Position numbers and translations under genes: made by a program
Shown: piece by piece, positions 4,333-33,610 of the stretch
Layout of the letters: the number at the start of each line of letters is the position of its first letter
How positions within the stretch are numbered: position 1 is the stretch's first letter
The notes under the pieces: generated by a model
The model's input: only the letters and a program-made list of their open reading frames with translations
Told to the model about the DNA's origin: nothing
Database searches by the model: none
Source of the DNA: an uncultured Chloroflexia bacterium
GTDB lineage: Bacteria > Chloroflexota > Limnocylindria > Limnocylindrales > CSP1-4
Assembly: GCA_963788235.1 (NCBI GenBank)
Contig: CAWBFV010000004.1
Span: 89,030 to 153,029, forward strand
Direction of reading: 5' to 3'
DNA: 64,000 nt

Positions 4333-4779
4333 ATGCGCAGGCTGAACCGCTGGTCGATCCTCGTCCTGACCGTCGTCAGCGGTCTCGTCGCCGCCTGTGC
4401 CCCGCCGGCCGCGGAGCCGGCCGGCGAGGAAGGGCCGGCGACTCGTCGAGGACATCGCCGGCTCCGACGTCAAGCGCTTGACGCTGACGGAGGATGCGGC
4501 CGAACGGATCGGCATCGAGATGGTCCCCGTCGCCAGCGCATCGGGCGGCGCACACGATCGTGCCCTCGAGCACGGTGATCTATGACGCCGCGCGGCCAGA
4601 CGTGGGTGTACACGAGCCCGGAGACCGACGTGTTCGTCCGGGCGCCGGTCACGCTCATCGACATCGATGGCGGCTACGAGGCACTGCTCTCCGACGGACC
4701 GCCGATCGACACCGAGGTCGTGACCGTCGGCGTCGCCGAGCTGTACGGCTCGGAGCTTGGCGTCGGGGATCCCGAGTGA
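4333..4779 (+). pseudogene. Small lipoprotein (mini periplasmic-adaptor-like) of RND module 1, broken by three frame shifts as sequenced
   Basis: ATG 4333 after a GGAG RBS. Signal peptide plus lipobox: MRRLNRWSILVLTVVSGLVAAC. The rest of the protein is recovered in three other frame segments: [35 protein letters not shown] / [15 protein letters not shown] / [61 protein letters not shown]. These are collinear with the intact paralog at 12086..12520. Confidence 0.75.
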
Positions 4780-4802
4780 CCAGCCGCGCCGGCCGCCTGA
4801 CG

Positions 4803-7800
4803 ATGCTCCGCAGGATCGTCTCCTCGAGTCTGCGCTTCCGGTTCCTCGTCGTCGCGATCGCGGCCGGGACGATCTTCTTCGGCGCCGACGAGCTGCGCAG
4901 TGCACCCGTCGACGTGTTCCCCGAGTTCGCGCCGCCGCGCGTCGAGGTCCAGACGGCGGCCCTCGGCCTGTCCGCGTCCGACGTCGAGTCGTTCGTCACC
5001 GTCCCGCTCGAGCAGGCGGTCGCGGGCATCGAAGGTCTCGATATCCTCCGCTCGAAATCCGTTCCCCAGCTGTCCCAGATCGAGCTGATCTTCAAGCCCG
5101 GGACCGACGTGATGAAGTCACGCCAGCTGGTGCAGGAACGGATCGAGAGCGTCACGCCGTCGCTGCCCACCTGGGCGGCACCGCCGTTCATGATGCCGCC
5201 GCTGTCGGCGACGAGCCGCGTGATGAAGATCGGCATGTCGTCGTCGTCCATGTCGGTCATGGACATGTCGCTGATCACCTATTGGACGATCCGGTCCCGG
5301 CTGCTGAGCGTGCCGGGCGTGGCCAACATCCCGATCTGGGGCGAGCAGCTCAACCAGCTGCACGTCGAGGTCGTGCCCGACAAGATGGTGGCCAAGGGCG
5401 TCACCCTCGATGCGGTCATGGAGGGCACCGCGGACGCCCTCGACGCCGGCATCCTGCAGTTCTCGGAAGCGCACGTGATCGGGACGGGCGGCTTCCTGGA
5501 GACGGCGAACCAGCGTTTCTCGATCCAGCACGTCCCGTCCGTCGTGACGCCCGACGACCTGCGCAAGGTCGTGCTCGTCGGTCAGAACGGCAAGCTGATC
5601 CCACTCGGGGACATCGCCGAGGTCGTCAAGGATCACCAGCCGCTCTTCGGCGATGCGGTCGTCAACGACGGCCCCGGCCTGCTGCTCGTGGTCGAGAAGT
5701 TCCCGTGGGCGAACACGCTTGACGTGACCCGCGGCGTCGAGCAGGCGCTCGAGGAGCTGAAGCCCGGTCTGCCCGGGATCAAGTTCGATACGACGATCTT
5801 CCGGCCGGCGTCGTTCATCGAGGTCGCCCTCGGGAACCTGTCGCTCGCGCTGGCCCTCGGCTGCCTCCTGGTCGTCCTGGTCCTGCTGGCGTTCCTCTTC
5901 GAGTGGCGGACCGCGCTGATCAGCCTCATCGCGATCCCCCTGTCGCTGCTGGCCGCAGGGCTGGTGCTCCACGCACGTGGGACGACGATCAACACGATGA
6001 TCCTCGCCGGGCTGGTGATCTCGGTCGGGGTCGTGGTCGACGACGCGATCATCGACGTCGAGAACATCGTGCGGCGACTGCGCCAGCATCGGCTCAGCGG
6101 GAGCGACAAGTCGACGGCGCTCGTGATCCTCGAATCGTCGCTGGAAGTGCGCAGCGCGATCATCTACGCGACCCTGATCGACGTCGTTGCGATCACCCCG
6201 GTCCTGTTCATCCAGGGTGTCTCCGGAGCGTTCTTCCAGCCGCTGATCATCTCGTACGGACTGGCCGTCCTGGCATCGATGCTGGTCGCCCTCACCGTCA
6301 CGCCGGCGCTGGCCCTGATCCTCCTCCACGGGTCCGCGATCGAGCGGCGCGAATCACCGTTGGCGCGCCGCCTGCAGCAGGCGTATGCGGCGGTCCTCTC
6401 GCGGGTGGTCAGGTCCGCACGGCCGGCCTTCGCGGCGGTCGCGGCCATCGCCGTCACCGGCATCATCGTCGCGCCGCAGCTCGGCCAGTCGCTGTTCCCT
6501 GAATTCAAGGAGCGCGACTTCCTGATGCACTGGATCACGACCCCGGGCACGTCGCTGCCGGAGGAGAACCGGATCATCCTCGCGGCCAGTCGCGACCTGC
6601 GGGCGATCCCCGGCGTGCGCAATTTCGGCGCGCACATCGGCCAGGCGCTGCTCGGCGAGGAGATCGCCGGAGTCGACTTCGGCGAGAACTGGATCAGCGT
6701 CGACCCGAACGCCGACTACGAGTCGACGCTCGAGCAGGTCGAGGAGGTGGCCGCGTCCTACACGGGGCTGTTCCGGAACGTCGAGACGTATCTCAACGAA
6801 CGGATCGACGAGGTCCTGACCGGATCCAGCGACCAGGTCTCCGTGCGGATCTACGGCCCTGACCTCAAGGAGCTCCAGCGCCTCGCCGACGAGGTCGAAT
6901 CATCGATCGCGAAGATCGACGGCATCGTCGACGTCCACCGCGACCTCCAGACCGACATCCCGCAGATCGAGGTCGTGGTCGATCTCCAGACCGCGCAGGC
7001 CTACGGCATCAAGCCCGGCGATGTCCGGCGGGCCGCGGCGACGCTCGTGTCGAGCGAAGAGGTCGGTGACATCTTCAGCGAGGGCAAGGCCTACGACGTG
7101 CACGTCTGGAGCACGCCCGCGACGCGCGAAAGCGTGAGCGACATCGAGAAGTTGCTCATCGACACGCCGGTCAAGGGGCCCGTGCCGCTCAGCGAGCTTG
7201 CGAGCGTCAAGGTCGTTCCGACGCCGAACCGGATCAACCACGAGAACCTGGCCCGGCTGATCACCGTCGGCGCCAACGTCGACGAGCGCGATCTCGGCGG
7301 GGCCGTCCGCGACATCGAGGCCGCCGTCGGGGACATCGAGTTCCCGCAGGGCTACCACCCCGAGTTCCTGGGCGAGTTCGCCGAGCGCCAGTCGGCCCAG
7401 AACAACCTGCTGCTGTTCGCGATCGCGGCCGCGATCGGCGTGCTGCTCCTCCTGCAGGCGGCGTTCGGGAACAGTCGCCTCGCGATCCTGTCCTTCCTCA
7501 CCCTGCCCTCGGCGCTGGTCGGCGGCGTGCTGGCCGCGTACGTCGGCGGAGGGACGCTGTCGCTCGGCTCGTTGATCGGGTTCTTCACCGTCCTGGGCAT
7601 CGCCGCGCGCAACGGGATCATGATGATCAACCACTTCCAGCACCTCGAGCGGGTCGAGGGCGAGCCATTCGGCCCCGGTCTCGTGGTGCGTGGCGCGCGA
7701 GAGCGACTCTCGCCGATCCTCATGACGGCGCTGGCCACCGGCCTGGCGCTCATCCCGCTGGTCCTCGCGGGCGATCTGCCCGGTGCGGAGATCGAGCACC

Positions 7801-27888: not shown

Positions 27889-29733
27889 TCAGCTGGGGTT
27901 CAGCACGTACAGGTTGTCGATCGCGACGGTCGGGTGACCGCGGGTCCCCAACGCCTTGATGGTGATGGTGTGCGAGCCGTCGGCGAGGTTCCGCGCGAAC
28001 AGCACGCGTCTCGCCTGGAATGTGGATCGATAGGTGTTGATGGTCGCGACGTAGGCGCCGTCGATGTAGACCTTCGCCCCTCCGCGAGTCGGTCCCACTG
28101 GGCCGACCCAGGCGACGCTCGATCCCGAGAAGCCCATCGTGGTGGTCGGCCCGTTCCGGTTCGTCGAGTGGAGGTACCCGCTGAGATAGCTCGAGCTCGA
28201 CACCCTCGACCACGTGCCGCTCCAATGCATCAGCGAGGATCCGTCGGAGATCGATGACGCGCGGGTCGTGGAGGAGTAGGCCCACGCGCCGACCCGTCCG
28301 GAGCGATCGACCGCGCGAACGCGGAATCGATCGTAGGTCGATGCGCGCAACGTCGCGCGGAACGAGGTCGCTGTCGAGGACGACAGCCGGCGCGTGAAGA
28401 ACGACCCGGAGCCGACCTGCAGCTGCAGGTCATATCGTCGGACCCCGTTCAGGCTCGACTTGAGGCTCCACGACACGTAGACCGGCACACCGGAGCTCGG
28501 TACGCCGGACGTCGTCGTCAGGCGGATGCTCGGGGCGTTCACGACCGGCGGGTCGCCAGGCGGTGGCGGGGAGGAGGATCCGCCACCGCTGCTGGCGCCG
28601 CTGCCGTACAGCCAGTCCGTGAAGCCGATCGCTCGGCCCGCGCCGGCGCTCGCTGTCGGGATGTTGGTGCCGTACCGAAGGTTCAGGAGCCACGGCATCT
28701 GCCGGGAGGCCTTGGTCCGATTCCAGCCGGTGCCGCCGCTCGCGGCTGACCGGGTGACGACGCCGGCCATCCGCTTGAGCGCGTCGTTCGACCAGTTCCA
28801 CGCGTCGCTGTACCCGTTCTGGTAGAGCAGCTCCACCTGCAGGCCGAGGCCCTGGATCGAGTCCAGCTGATACGCGATGCCGGTGCTGCCGGGAGGCCAT
28901 TGGAGGGCCCCGCCGCGACTGATGTCCGCCACCACGGCCCCGTCGACGTTGACTCCCCTCCGCTCGCATGCCGGGTTGACCGGCGTGTATGTCGACGCGC
29001 TGCCGGTGCAGCTCCACGAGATCGCCGAGGACGAGATGTTGGTCTCGAACCCGGCGTACGCGGCGCGGTCGCCGAGGAAACCACGCGTGATGCGCGAGGC
29101 CTGCGAGAGGTCGCTGGTATCGCCGAGGTACAGGCTCGCCGCGATCCGCGCCGCACCGGCATACGCGCCCCAGTTGTTCGCGGAATCGTGCTGGGTGCGC
29201 TCGAGCGAGTTCCAGATCGAATGGCCACCGATGACCTTGGTTCGGATCGCCGACAGCCAGCTCCGGAACGTCGTGTCGTTGCTGCCCGAGAGACCGGCGA
29301 AGTCGGCGGCGAGGACATACGCGGCCAGCTGACGACCGAGCGCGAGCGTCGCGTTGTTGCAGCCGACACGCTGCGTCCCGATCGCTGCCATCACCCCGGA
29401 TCGAGCCTTGGTCCCGAACCGCGCATCGCCGGTTCGCGCGTAGACGAGCGCGGCAGCGAGCGTGCGCAGGTGGTGATCGTTGTCCTGGTCGCAGAGGTTC
29501 GGGGTCCCGTCGGCACCGGCAGCCAATTCGCGCATGTTCGTCCACGCGGTCCCGCTGACCGGGCGGGCCATGAGCGCCGAGCGCGACATCAGGAGGTAGT
29601 CGGTCGCTGCGTCAGCGCGGGCGGGAACGAGCGCGATCGGAAGGGCGAGGGCGGTGGCCACGAGCAGGGCCACGAGACGGGTCCTGGGGGAGGCGTGAGA
29701 CGTCCACTGGACGCCGGTTCCAACCGGCCGCAT
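27889..29733 (-). CDS. Secreted alginate-lyase-fold (PF05426-like) protein with C-terminal FN3-like and beta-sandwich domains (paralog 1)
   Basis: ATG 29733 after an AGGAG RBS. Signal peptide ... ALVPARADA. Conserved blocks DYLLMSRSAL, ALVYARTGD, ATLALGRQLAAYVLAADF, HDSANNWGAYAGAARIAASLYLGD, IGFTDWLYG. The C-terminal WSGTWSRVSSSSYL ... AKVYIDG module resembles a carbohydrate-binding module. Confidence 0.6.
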   Translation of the reverse strand: MRPVGTGVQWTSHASPRTRLVALLVATALALPIALVPARADAATDYLLMSRSALMARPVSGTAWTNMRELAAGADGTPNLCDQDNDHHLRTLAAALVYARTGDARFGTKARSGVMAAIGTQRVGCNNATLALGRQLAAYVLAADFAGLSGSNDTTFRSWLSAIRTKVIGGHSIWNSLERTQHDSANNWGAYAGAARIAASLYLGDTSDLSQASRITRGFLGDRAAYAGFETNISSSAISWSCTGSASTYTPVNPACERRGVNVDGAVVADISRGGALQWPPGSTGIAYQLDSIQGLGLQVELLYQNGYSDAWNWSNDALKRMAGVVTRSAASGGTGWNRTKASRQMPWLLNLRYGTNIPTASAGAGRAIGFTDWLYGSGASSGGGSSSPPPPGDPPVVNAPSIRLTTTSGVPSSGVPVYVSWSLKSSLNGVRRYDLQLQVGSGSFFTRRLSSSTATSFRATLRASTYDRFRVRAVDRSGRVGAWAYSSTTRASSISDGSSLMHWSGTWSRVSSSSYLSGYLHSTNRNGPTTTMGFSGSSVAWVGPVGPTRGGAKVYIDGAYVATINTYRSTFQARRVLFARNLADGSHTITIKALGTRGHPTVAIDNLYVLNPS

Positions 29734-29955
29734 GTCGCTCCTTTCTACCTGGACGCCGCATGACGAATGCGACGAACGAAAGGTGACCCCCTTCGACGGG
29801 CGAACGGGCGTGACAGTAGGGTCGCGTGACGGCCGCGGTGAGCGCGGGTGGGGACCATCCCCGGACGACCCTGGGTTGCGTAGTTTGCGCCCTTTGCGCC
29901 TCGATGTCACGCCTGTTTCGGACGTTGCCCGCAGGACCCGTAGACTGCACCGTCG

Positions 29956-31239
29956 ATGTCGATCCCAGAGACACCACCGACACCCGCGATCCCGCCGACG
30001 CCCGCGACATCACGCCGCCGCACCGGGCGCTGGCTCGCCCTCGCGGCGGTGCTCGGCGCGGTGGTCGGCGTCGGCCTTGCCCTGCGTCCTGCGGCGCCGG
30101 TGCCGTCTCCCTCTCCGTCCCCGTCGAGCGCCGCCGTGCCGACGCCGTCGGGCTCCGGTGGCGCACCGGCTTCCCCAACGCCCAGCGCCGCACCCACGGT
30201 GCCCGCGAGCCCGACGTTGTCGCCCCCACCGCCGCGAGCACCGGGCGATTACCTCCTCCTGACGCGCGCCGAGCTGATGGCCCTGCCGACCAGCGGACCG
30301 GCCTGGGACGCGCTGCTGGGCTTCGCCGACGGCGACTACGGGGTGGCCAATCTGTCGGACCAGGACTCCCACCACGACGTCAGCACGTTCGGGGCGGCGC
30401 TGGTCTACGCGCGCACCGGGAATGCCACCTATCGAGAGCGAGCACGCGACGGGGTCATGGCCGCGATCGGCACCGAACGCGAGGGCGCGACCAATTCGAT
30501 CCTTGCCCTTGGTCGCCAGCTCGGCGCCTACGTCCTCGCGGCCGACCTGATCGACCTGTCGGGTGACGACGATGCGCGGTTCCGGGAGTGGCTGACCGAC
30601 ATCCGGACGCGAACGCTCGGCGGGCACGGCCGCTGGGTCAGCCTGATCGGCACCCACGAGGACTCCGCCAACAACTGGGGGGCCTTCGCGGGGGCCTCGC
30701 GCATCGCCGCGGGGCTCTACCTCGGCGATACCGCCGACGTCGCCAAGGCCGCCCAGGTCCTCCGCGGCTTCCTGGGCGACAAGGCCGCGTGGGACCGCTT
30801 CCAGCCGGTCGAGGGCAGCGCCTCGTGGGCCTGCGAGCCCAAGTCGTACGTGCCGTTGAACCCGCCATGCGTCCGCGACGGGATCGACCTCGACGGCGCG
30901 ATCGTGCGCGACATCGACCGCGGCGGGAATCGCAAATGGCCGCCCGGACGGGATGGCGTCGCCTATACGCTCGAGGCGCTCCAGGGGCTGTCCGTCCAGG
31001 CGGAGCTGCTCACCGAGAACGGCTGGGGCGACGCCTGGCATTGGTCGGATGACGCGCTCCGCCGCGCCGCGGATCTCGTCACGAGATCGGGCTCGGCCGG
31101 GGGTCGGACCTGGAACCGCTCCGAGGTCAGCTACCACCTGCCCTGGCTGTTCAACGCCCGCTACGGCCTCGACCTCCCGACCCGACCGGCGGGCCAGGGC
31201 CGGATCTTCGGCTATACGGACTGGCTGTACGGCGGCTGA
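29956..31239 (+). CDS. Secreted/anchored alginate-lyase-fold protein (paralog 2)
   Basis: ORF 29956..31239. N-terminal TM segment plus Pro/Ser linker. Same conserved blocks: DYLLLTRAEL, ALVYARTGN, ILALGRQLGAYVLAADL, EDSANNWGAFAGASRIAAGLYLGD, FGYTDWLYGG. Confidence 0.6.
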   Translation: MSIPETPPTPAIPPTPATSRRRTGRWLALAAVLGAVVGVGLALRPAAPVPSPSPSPSSAAVPTPSGSGGAPASPTPSAAPTVPASPTLSPPPPRAPGDYLLLTRAELMALPTSGPAWDALLGFADGDYGVANLSDQDSHHDVSTFGAALVYARTGNATYRERARDGVMAAIGTEREGATNSILALGRQLGAYVLAADLIDLSGDDDARFREWLTDIRTRTLGGHGRWVSLIGTHEDSANNWGAFAGASRIAAGLYLGDTADVAKAAQVLRGFLGDKAAWDRFQPVEGSASWACEPKSYVPLNPPCVRDGIDLDGAIVRDIDRGGNRKWPPGRDGVAYTLEALQGLSVQAELLTENGWGDAWHWSDDALRRAADLVTRSGSAGGRTWNRSEVSYHLPWLFNARYGLDLPTRPAGQGRIFGYTDWLYGG

Positions 31240-31514
31240 TCGGTACGGAAGGGCCGGTCGGTAGGGTGGGGTCCGCTGCGGTCCTGACCTGATCGGCCGT
31301 GGCGCCGACGCACCACTCGGACTCGATCCCCGGCCGCCGCTCGGCGCCCAGCGGGACCATCGACCGATTGCCCTCGTTCGACCCAACCCCCAAGGTAGTC
31401 CAGACCAAGGATGCGGTGGATCTGCCCCCCAGCGGGACGATCCGTCTCGACCATCGGCGCCGCACGAACGCCGCGGCCGCCCCCGTCACCGTCAGCACCC
31501 CCACTGACAGGACC

Positions 31515-31605
31515 GCCGAAAACCGAACAGGCAAACCCGTCGCGAGGCGGGGACGCAAAACCACGGGCCTGGATCCCCAGGTAGCCGGGTTGCCGAAGTC
31601 GCATC
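31515..31605 (+). promoter_or_regulatory. c-di-GMP-I (GEMM-I) riboswitch aptamer
   Basis: ACAGGCAAACC-CGUC-GCGA-GGCG-GGGACGCAAAACC-ACGGGCCUGG..CCAGGUAGCCGGGUUGCCGAAG (core 31527-31598). It reproduces in order the invariant GEMM-I blocks, including a GNRA-capped hairpin. Located ~90 nt upstream of GTG 31688. Confidence 0.8.
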
Positions 31606-31687
31606 GCGCGGCCGGTCGCCTCCGCCATGCGACCGCGCGGTCTTCCGACGCTGTCCCGGCTGCGAACCAGCCGACAGGGAGGTCGTC

Positions 31688-33610
31688 GTGCGGAACATCG
31701 CCATCGCGGACCGCAAGGATTGGGTCGTCAACCAGCGGGCGGCCCCGCCGCCACGGCGCCCCTCGAAGATCCGCGACTGGCTCGCCACCCTGCCGATCAT
31801 CCTGCTGATCCCGGCCCTCGCCGTGCCCATCCTCATGACCGCGGCCGGCGGCACGTCCCTCAAGATCTCGCCGGAGGCGCCCGGTCCCGGGCAGAAGTTC
31901 ACGATCGTCGGCGAAGGGTTCGACCGCAACGAGGAGGGCTCGCTCGTCTGGTTGTCGGACGACGCCGCCCCGACGGGCGACGCCCAGGGTGCCGCGGCAC
32001 CGACGGTCGGGCGCCCGATCAAGACCTTCAAGACCAATTCCCGCGGCCGGTTCACGGTCAGGGTCACCCTGCCCCGCTCGTTCGCGATCGGCAACTACGA
32101 GCTCGCCGCCCTGGGAGCGGACGGGACCGTGCGCGCCGTGATCACGATCGAGGTGGCAAAGCGACTGGTCGTGGTGCCGCCGTCGAACGACACGCCGAAG
32201 AACACGCCCAAGCCGATCCGCGTCGTCAAGCCAAAGGCCGCGAAGCCGACGCCGAAGCCGACGGCAGCCCCTACGGCGGAACCGACCGCGGCGCGAACTG
32301 CCGAGCCGACGCCGGCACCGACCCCGACCCCCACGCCGGCAGCCGCGGCGACGCCTGCCCCGACGCCGGTGGCGACGCCTGCCCCGACGCCGGTCGCGAC
32401 GCCTGCCGCGACACCGGTCGCGGCGACCCCGACACCGACGCCGGCAGCGACCGCCTCGCCGACGCCGACCCCGAGCCCGACCGCATCTCCGACCCCGACG
32501 CCGACCGCGTCGCCGACGCCGAGTCCGACGCCATCGCCGACCCCGAGCCCAACGCCCACGCCCAGCCCGACGCCGTCACCGACGCCCACACCCCCACCGA
32601 CCCCGGTCCCGACGGGTCCCGCGCCGCTGCCGACACTGGCCGCGCCCGCGCTCGGCATCATCGCCTCGCAGTCAGAGATCCAGCGCCTGCCGGCGGGCGG
32701 CGCCGCCTGGAACGGGCTCAAGAGCACGGCCGACGGTGTCCTCGGCACGCCGAACATCTCCAACCAGGACGACAACACCGACCAGGTGGTCCTCGCCCGC
32801 GCGCTGGCCTATTCGCGCACCGGTAGCCTCGCCTATCGCTCGACGGTCGCGACGGCGATCAAGCAGGCGGTCGGCACCGAGGTCGGTGGGCGGACGCTCG
32901 CCCTCGGTCGCAACCTGCCGGCCTACGTGCTGTCCGCGGACCTGATCTCGTTCAAGACGTACGACCCGGCCTTCGACTCGAACGTGTTCCGACCGTGGCT
33001 GCGCTCACTGCTGACCGAGGTGCTCGACGGGAAGACCCTGCGCCAGACGCACGAGCAGCGACCGAACAACTGGGGCACCCATGCCGGTGCCGCCCGGGCG
33101 GCGATCGCCGCCTATCTCGGTGATACCGCGGAGATGGCCCGCACCGCGCAGGTGTTCCGCGGCTGGCTCGGTGACCGGACCGCGTACGCCGGCTTCATCT
33201 ACGGCGACCTGAGCTGGCAGTGCGACGCGGCCAAGCCCGTCGGCATCAACCCGACCGGCTGCACGAAGGGCGGCGTCGTGATCGATGGCGCCCTCCCCGA
33301 GGAGATGCGTCGCGGCGGCGCGTTCCAGTGGCCGCCTGTGGCGACCGGGTACGCCTGGGAGGCCCTGCAGGGTGCCGTCCTGCAGGCCGAGATCCTGCGC
33401 GTCGCCGGCTACGACTCGTGGAACTGGTCAGACAAGGCCATGCTTCGCGCCGTGCGCTTCCTGTACGGCCGGGCCGGCTGGGCCGCCGAGGGTGACGACG
33501 AGTGGCAGCCCTGGCTGATCGACAAGCGCTACGGGACGGCCTATCGCGGCCCGGCGCCCGCCCGGACCGGCAAGAACTACGGCTACACCGACTGGCTGAA
33601 CGCTCCCTGA
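31688..33610 (+). CDS. Secreted Ig-like (IPT-type) domain + Pro/Thr linker + alginate-lyase-fold protein (paralog 3)
   Basis: GTG 31688 after a GGGAGG RBS. N-terminal TM/signal, [12 protein letters not shown] Ig-like segment, ~125-aa PT-rich linker. Lyase-fold blocks [56 protein letters not shown]. Confidence 0.6.
32245..32615 (+). repeat. Low-complexity Pro/Thr/Ala/Ser-coding linker with short tandem repeats
   Basis: Encodes [14 protein letters not shown] ... [24 protein letters not shown] ... [32 protein letters not shown]. Includes near-identical 24-nt units (gcgacgcctgccccgacgccggt x2). Confidence 0.9.

Follow-up and report, generated by a model that had tools for sequence, protein, structure and literature searches.

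A predicted c-di-GMP-I riboswitch aptamer with a canonical ligand pocket precedes a polysaccharide-lyase-like gene in an exopolysaccharide locus

Does an RNA sensor of the second messenger cyclic di-guanosine monophosphate (c-di-GMP) act here on an enzyme that would cut a polysaccharide, and if so, which ligand would it bind and how would it work? The question is raised by one intergenic gap in a 64-kb stretch of contig CAWBFV010000004.1 (the window; all coordinates are those of this stretch), in which a sequence-only reading had placed a GEMM-I (c-di-GMP-I) riboswitch at 31515-31605. Our analysis indicates that the element at 31522-31599 is very probably the ligand-sensing domain of a class-I c-di-GMP riboswitch, predicted to have a canonical pocket and to lie in the 5' leader of the lyase-like gene that begins at 31688. 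Riboswitches of this kind are well known; what is new in this example is the lineage that carries it and the particular gene that it precedes.

We scanned both strands of the window against 4,227 Rfam families with Infernal at gathering thresholds. A single match exceeded its gathering score, at 31521-31598 on the + strand (68.8 bits, E = 3.6e-14, where E covers the window and all 4,227 families), which is far beyond chance, and a permissive scan of 31300-31800 gave the same match. The top family was RF03167 ("c-di-GMP-I-GGC", cutoff 59 bits, clan CL00126) rather than the c-di-GMP-I family RF01051. One further family of this clan also passed its own gathering score at the site; the Rfam scan reports only the best family per clan, and going by the pattern in our control and ortholog scans the second family is almost certainly RF01051 (cutoff 35). 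The letters quoted in the earlier reading are those of the + strand at 31528-31598, and the element lies in a gap of 448 bp (31240-31687) between the stop of the open reading frame (ORF) at 29956-31239 and the GTG at 31688. The aptamer ends 88 nucleotides (nt) 5' of that GTG on the same strand, in keeping with the spacing of about 90 nt given in that reading. The parts of the predicted aptamer (P, paired region; J, junction) are as follows.

31522-31599, + strand: complete c-di-GMP-I (GEMM-I) aptamer, from the P1 5' strand to the P1 3' strand, predicted from the Rfam match and covariation among 41 relatives
31522-31525, + strand: P1 5' strand, ACCG, with pairs A31522-U31599, C31523-G31598, C31524-G31595 and G31525-C31594; A31596 and A31597 are bulged on the 3' side
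31526-31530, + strand: junction J1/2, AACAG, 5 nt, placed by Rfam consensus column mapping
31531-31556, + strand: P2 hairpin, opened by a 2-bp base (G31531-C31556 and C31532-G31555)
within 31531-31556, + strand: 3x3 internal loop of P2, AAA opposite GAC, in which C31554 is the equivalent of Vc2 C44
31536-31541 with 31546-31551, + strand: 6-bp stem of P2, closed by a GCGA tetraloop at 31542-31545, from alignment and covariation
31557-31558, + strand: linker AA, in which A31557 is the equivalent of Vc2 A47, a G in the RF03167 consensus
31559-31591, + strand: P3 hairpin, short and without a tetraloop receptor, from the Rfam alignment and covariation among the 41 relatives; A31563 is bulged, and a 3' bulge, A31583-G31584, contains the equivalent of Vc2 G83 (G31584)
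31592-31593, + strand: GC between P3 and the P1 3' strand, in which C31593 is the equivalent of Vc2 C92

The nucleotides that would contact the ligand are the canonical ones. By Rfam column mapping G31530, the nucleotide just before the opening G-C pair of P2, is the Vc2 G20 equivalent, and with A31557 and C31593 it forms the triad G20, A47 and C92. In this mapping model position p is taken as Vc2 position p + 10. As a cross-check, C34 maps to C44, the interhelix base named in PMC4744006. Class-I c-di-GMP riboswitches contact their ligand through G20, A47 and C92 (PMC4744006, PMC5888326): in Vc2, G20 pairs with G-alpha of the ligand (PMC5888326) and C92 forms a Watson-Crick pair with G-beta (PMC5888326, PMC4744006). 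The nucleotides of the C44-G83 interhelix pair are likewise present at the sequence level as C31554 and G31584, and by inspection of the rows the G31584 column is G in 41 of 41 aligned relatives.

The overall architecture is that of the c-di-GMP-I class as known from Vc2 and Vc1 of Vibrio cholerae and Bc1 and Bc2 of Bacillus (RF01051), with two hairpins closed by a short P1. The window shows all hallmarks of the GEMM description: stems of 2 and 6 bp, an internal loop of 3 nt, a GNRA loop and, joining the two hairpins, an AAA linker (here A31557-A31559) that has only 2 exceptions among 322 examples (PMC1950547). The GCGA-capped hairpin of the earlier reading is part of this pattern and reads CCCGUC/GGCGGG at 31536-31551. 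The window differs from the reference forms in its 5-nt J1/2, where these have 6 nt, in its short P3 without a receptor, and in an 88-nt GC-rich leader without a terminator between aptamer and start region; it differs also in its host, probably a Limnocylindria-like member of the Chloroflexota, and in the outcome of Rfam clan competition. A receptor-less P3 typically goes with GYRA loops (PMC1950547), and the same coupling appears among the matches listed in a control scan described below, where a GYRA loop goes with a receptor-less P3 in 62 of 65 cases and a GAAA loop with a UAA receptor-like element in 27 of 44. The scaffold is shared with the riboswitches for 3'3'-cyclic AMP-GMP (cGAMP), the GEMM-Ib group of Geobacter. 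Those carry A at the G20 position, a G20A change that confers cGAMP binding (PMC7288161), in contrast to G31530 in the window.

The fold is also upheld by covariation. Searching metagenomes with the lineage-specific pattern AACAGGCAMACCC...GGGGNCGCAAARCCACGG returned 66 contigs, and we aligned 41 distinct aptamers: that of the window, those of its syntenic orthologues, and others from metagenome contigs and two genomes of Actinoplanes. P2 and P3 were recovered from this set by RNAalifold, with 8 of 19 pairs compensated, and P1 was added by reading it from the sequences. With P1 included, standard pairs fill 95.6% of cells; sliding the 3' partners by 1-3 columns lowers this to 23-44%. Double-sided changes occur in 10 of 24 pairs, and none of 500 shuffles reached the observed values. 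P2 is paired throughout (100%, with double changes in 3 pairs), and in P3, where 5 pairs are compensatory, the paired fraction is 96.3%. For P1 it is 84.8%, and 2 pairs covary: the outer two pairs exchange CG, AU, UA and GC (18 and 13 double changes), while the inner two are kept in 38-39 of the 41 sequences. All three helices thus covary in relatives, the check that had been proposed for this element.

The gene behind the aptamer and its start region are laid out as follows.

31598-31608 with 31623-31633, + strand: leader hairpin I1, GC-rich, its 5' arm sharing G31598-U31599 with P1
31605-31614 with 31630-31639, + strand: leader hairpin I2, GC-rich and mutually exclusive with I1
31677-31682, + strand: Shine-Dalgarno sequence (SD) GGGAGG, followed after a 5-nt spacer by the GTG start codon at 31688-31690; SD, start and first codons are conserved in orthologues
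31688-33610, + strand: putatively regulated gene, 640 amino acids (aa), encoding, from the N terminus, a hydrophobic anchor, a weakly TIG-like module and a linker rich in Pro and Thr, with a polysaccharide-lyase (alpha/alpha)-toroid at the C terminus
27889-29910 (- strand), 29956-31239 (+ strand) and 31688-33610 (+ strand): three adjacent paralogous lyase-like genes of the PF05426 type

The C-terminal domain of the 640-aa protein matches Pfam Alginate_lyase (PF05426, E = 3e-14), and an AlphaFold (AF2) model of residues ~320-640, built with 32 homologues, has a pLDDT of 94.1 and a pTM of 0.94. Foldseek returned PL17, PL38 and PL5 alginate lyases as the best PDB folds for this domain (TM score 0.42-0.60, 13-18% identity), with other (alpha/alpha)-toroid polysaccharide lyases also among the best matches; no PDB relative was found by sequence. 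The model and these matches support a polysaccharide-lyase (alpha/alpha)-toroid fold; we call the protein lyase-like, and alginate is at most a putative substrate. The domain has more than 2,000 homologues, the named ones being from Chloroflexota and Candidatus Limnocylindrales metagenome-assembled genomes (MAGs), so that the window probably derives from this lineage; an exact look-up of the 640-aa protein gave no recorded match. The proteins of the paralogues at 29956-31239 and 31688-33610 are 42% identical over the catalytic domain, and only the latter of the three genes has a riboswitch. Genes for Wzy_C, GT2 and an epimerase come next on the other strand, which agrees with the exopolysaccharide (EPS) setting described earlier.

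That description had also made the protein an Ig-domain, PT-linker and alginate-lyase-fold exoprotein. The lyase fold and the Pro/Thr-rich linker stand. Pfam finds no family in the N-terminal 171 aa, and the sole sign of an Ig domain is a weak alignment (24% identity, pairwise E = 8e-6) of this segment with the N terminus of another aptamer-controlled protein, in a part that is a Pfam TIG domain; an Ig domain is thus plausible and weakly supported. We note that the N-terminal module encoded at 31688-32200 (a short cytoplasmic tail, a hydrophobic anchor and a TIG-like beta domain) resembles the N termini of unrelated proteins behind aptamers of the same lineage (L138 4418-5821 on the - strand, L163, L168, L173 and L174), and the aptamer lineage and this module may travel together.

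The pairing of aptamer and lyase-like gene recurs in relatives. Syntenic loci were reached through homologues of the lyase, and the aptamer stands before lyase-like orthologues in at least 17 further loci. In L121, L122 and L124 it scores best on RF03167 (61-63.5 bits), in L129-L131 it scores best on RF01051 (44.6 bits), and 11 more metagenome contigs carry it before a lyase orthologue. The aptamer-to-start-codon distance is 159-176 nt in the lyase loci found by pattern and 163 nt in the window. The loci share synteny in Wzy, GT2 and GT4 genes, two of them (L121 and L122) keep two of the three lyase paralogues, and they appear to be Chloroflexota of the Limnocylindria-like kind. Other genes behind the same aptamer lineage encode Big_7/fn3 and TIG surface proteins, a CHASE histidine kinase, a subtilase, a periplasmic binding protein and small unknown proteins. 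"Environment, membrane" genes are the typical GEMM target set (PMC1950547), and the window shares with known c-di-GMP-I riboswitches this 5' regulatory position before the gene of a surface or secreted protein.

We propose that binding of c-di-GMP would lock the short P1 (31522-25 with 31594-99) and the docking of P2 and P3, that the locked aptamer would change the folding of the ~88-nt GC-rich leader that links P1 to the GGGAGG SD and GTG, and that refolding of the leader would set expression of the lyase gene. The transcript looks monocistronic, and its product would be a membrane-anchored or secreted polysaccharide-lyase-like protein made within an exopolysaccharide locus. We favor control at translation initiation over transcription attenuation or Rho-dependent control, and hold it at about an even chance, because the leader lacks an intrinsic terminator and keeps the start codon at a conserved distance. 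As to direction, repression at high c-di-GMP (OFF) is slightly favored over activation (ON). Sister aptamers, in the TIG-protein group (group-C) and in Actinoplanes, have their SD within the P1 3' strand or adjoining it, the classic OFF design, and this gives a slight lean towards OFF, as does the fit with dispersal logic of a matrix-cutting enzyme that is made when c-di-GMP falls.

Several observations weigh against this picture, some bearing on the aptamer and others on the way in which it would act. The 5-nt J1/2 is one nucleotide below consensus and a minority form; because of it the Infernal alignment is one nucleotide out of register at P1 and flags a non-canonical end pair. Such a J1/2 is within natural variation, since 11 of the 77 scorable canonical aptamers among the matches listed in the control scan have it. 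No GEMM aptamer was found anywhere in loci L125 and L126, and none upstream of the lyase gene in L127, even at E <= 1, so riboswitch control of these lyase genes is not universal; judging from these sequences, the riboswitch is gained or lost within the lyase gene family. A motif search of the 64-kb window for GGDEF/EAL genes found none, with no GGDEF motif present; in one ortholog locus a GGDEF-EAL protein is encoded close by. When nine orthologous leaders were folded with the aptamer locked or with P1 free, neither the SD nor the start codon became consistently more or less accessible. Complementarity of the P1-3' tail to the start region or SD was no better than in dinucleotide shuffles in 8 of 9 leaders, and with duplex energies at shuffle level we rejected the tail as an anti-start or anti-SD element; an evolved SD-sequestering helix was likewise set aside, as SD accessibility is not significantly below that of shuffled leaders.

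Two other pairings were considered and rejected. RNAalifold suggested a long-range contact between the start codon and the P1 5' strand, which shows no covariation and is disrupted in 2 of 8 sequences. A "P0" helix around the aptamer occurs in the minimum-free-energy fold of the window and is not conserved in orthologues.

The lyase-like orthologues of L125-L127 keep the same Wzy/GT2 (or other) context. In L127 a different GEMM-I aptamer of the CAGGGC type (4775-4856, - strand, RF01051 at 47.1 bits) stands before a 30-aa hydrophobic ORF (MKANLARFTTAIALLASIALSLGAGIRWEW), and this unit adjoins genes for a DUF5317 protein and a GAF-GGDEF-EAL protein.

The alternative that survives best concerns direction. 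The lyase may instead be co-induced with EPS synthesis at high c-di-GMP and serve in maintenance or export clearing, as AlgL, PelA and PslG do, a possibility to which we give a chance somewhat short of even. The gene lies inside the EPS locus beside Wzy and GT genes, and the leader is ~85 nt longer than in the OFF design with the SD at P1 and is conserved in length; an inverting element would require such extra length. ON switches are also common among GEMM RNAs (PMC1950547; Bc2 in PMC4933901). No conserved anti-sequestor element was identified in the leaders, however, the candidate pairings did not rise above shuffles, and the analogy with the three enzymes is a general one.

A switch at the level of transcription is possible and rather less likely. 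The ligand would choose between hairpins I1 and I2, whose role in switching we infer, and one choice would lead to premature termination before the lyase ORF, intrinsic without a U-tract or Rho-dependent. The two mutually exclusive hairpins stand directly 3' of P1, one of them shares 2 nt with it, a GC-rich hairpin recurs at the same position in orthologues, and terminators are used by many GEMM RNAs (PMC1950547). Against this, our scan for an intrinsic terminator as the platform found no terminator-like site, no U-tract follows the post-P1 hairpins in the window (GUCUUCC) or in any orthologue, where U residues are fewer still, and the overlap of I1 with P1 is limited to 2 nt. Neither hairpin is conserved in sequence, and on the leader platform RNAalifold gave almost no covariation. 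Control at translation initiation remains the reading that we favor.

A separate observation concerns the interior of P2. The middle nucleotides of its 3x3 internal loop, 31534 and 31553 (Rfam model positions 14 and 33, which by our own Vc2 numbering we take to be A24 and A43), co-vary in a non-Watson-Crick manner: in 49 unique metagenome aptamers (L132-L197) the combinations are A/A in 30, C/C in 14, C/U in 3 and A/G in 2, with all others absent (0 of 49) even though the search pattern admitted all eight, and the window has A/A. This suggests an isosteric non-canonical pair. One could go further and see in the "AACAG" GEMM-I lineage, which is widespread in soil Chloroflexota and Actinomycetota and marked by the 5-nt J1/2 and this co-variation, a functionally distinct subclass with possibly shifted affinity or selectivity for cyclic dinucleotides, which might gate a matrix-lyase "dispersal switch" through a long leader without a terminator in Limnocylindria-like bacteria; we regard this as a speculative and improbable extension.

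The Rfam label raises the alternative that the RNA is a true c-di-GMP-I-GGC variant with an altered pocket and a ligand other than c-di-GMP. This variant reportedly stems from the 2017 survey of variant riboswitches by Weinberg et al., and from the Rfam consensus we take its name to list G20, G47 and C92. RF03167 is the top-scoring family in the window, above its gathering cutoff, the orthologous aptamers of L121, L122 and L124 also fit it best, and the window shares with the variant a short, high-GC, GYRA-loop form. The consensus of the family reads ...GGGACGC-G-AAgCc..., as against ...GGGACGC-A-AAACC... in the window, and the mismatching column is A47: the G that defines RF03167 is absent, with A31557 in the window and A in every orthologue, which gives a canonical pocket.

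We therefore examined how the label behaves in other genomes. A control scan with one genome per species used the pattern AGGCAAACC-N8-18-GGGACGC-R-AANCC, which allows A or G at column 47, and gave at least 126 matches in at least 120 loci from many phyla; all 126 matches listed have A at that column and none has G. Of 18 A-bearing control loci that were run through Rfam, 13 scored best on RF03167 (60.9-78.1 bits; L003, L009, L013, L018, L029, L031, L037, L042, L079, L080, L086, L098 and L105). These are mostly Actinomycetota and Solirubrobacterales with short P3 helices and GYRA loops. The other 5, including Shewanella (83.2) and Aneurinibacillus (89.7), scored best on RF01051 and are forms with a GAAA loop and receptor. 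The RF03167 model evidently captures a compact, GYRA-loop, high-GC form regardless of the pocket nucleotide. Since 13 of 18 controls with A47 also score best there, the label is no evidence for a variant ligand and the score of 68.8 against 59 bits does not discriminate; a true GGC variant is very improbable here. More generally, clan competition in Rfam attaches the "GGC variant" label to many GEMM-I aptamers from high-GC bacteria whose pocket is canonical, and automated counts of the variant in high-GC genomes are probably inflated. We consider this annotation caveat, together with the strict non-Watson-Crick covariation in the P2 internal loop, the most useful by-product of the analysis.

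That the aptamer is a decaying or non-regulatory relic is just as improbable, for although some orthologous loci are without an aptamer and no switch mechanism could be modeled, the pocket and tertiary-contact nucleotides are all intact, compensatory changes maintain the pairing of P1, P2 and P3 across relatives, and the aptamer-to-start distance and an upstream motif are conserved.

The earlier reading had stressed that second-messenger control would fall on a glycan-degrading gene rather than a synthase. The lyase-fold target is as described, and such an arrangement is less unusual than claimed, because a regulon survey of GEMM riboswitches had already listed 21 polysaccharide-degradation genes (PMC3766115); the pairing of GEMM with a polysaccharide-degrading enzyme is thus already known. 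The zmpI gene of Clostridioides difficile has similarly been cited as encoding a matrix- or adhesin-cutting enzyme under control of a c-di-GMP riboswitch (PMC4744006). As with these targets, the second messenger would act through RNA on a secreted degradative enzyme. The gene in the window differs from them in encoding a PF05426-type lyase-fold protein within a Wzy-dependent EPS locus, as one of three paralogues, and the riboswitch marks which of these lyase-like genes would be wired to the second messenger. The locus offers a direct and testable link between c-di-GMP and exopolysaccharide turnover in an uncultured Chloroflexota lineage that is abundant in soil and freshwater. We know of no signaling data for this lineage.

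The intergenic gap, which had been called featureless, has the length given for it and contains a further conserved element upstream of the aptamer.

31353-31396, + strand: promoter-like conserved motif, consisting of the 21-nt GGGACCATCGACCGATTGCCC, a 17-nt spacer and CAAGGT

GGGACCATCGACCGATTGCCC includes TTGCCC at 31368-31373, and with CAAGGT at 31391-31396 the motif has a -35/-10-like geometry. It is conserved in position and sequence in L177, L121, L122, L148, L181, L152 and L158, with the CAAGGT box ~12 nt before the aptamer in L122 and ~120 nt before it in the other loci. A scan with the sigma-70 consensus did not flag the motif, and a role as a repeated operator was ruled out, as it is unique in the window. 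It may be the promoter of the riboswitch-lyase transcription unit.

Elsewhere, GEMM-I aptamers occur in tandem (L060 1222-1578, L006 1326-1596, L059, L076 and L119). A Desulfobulbaceae MAG has three copies ~161 nt apart, and Dethiobacter, Omnitrophota and Solirubrobacterales MAGs have two copies each. Some of the Solirubrobacterales tandem copies are identical and ~800 nt apart, which suggests duplicated gene-leader units.

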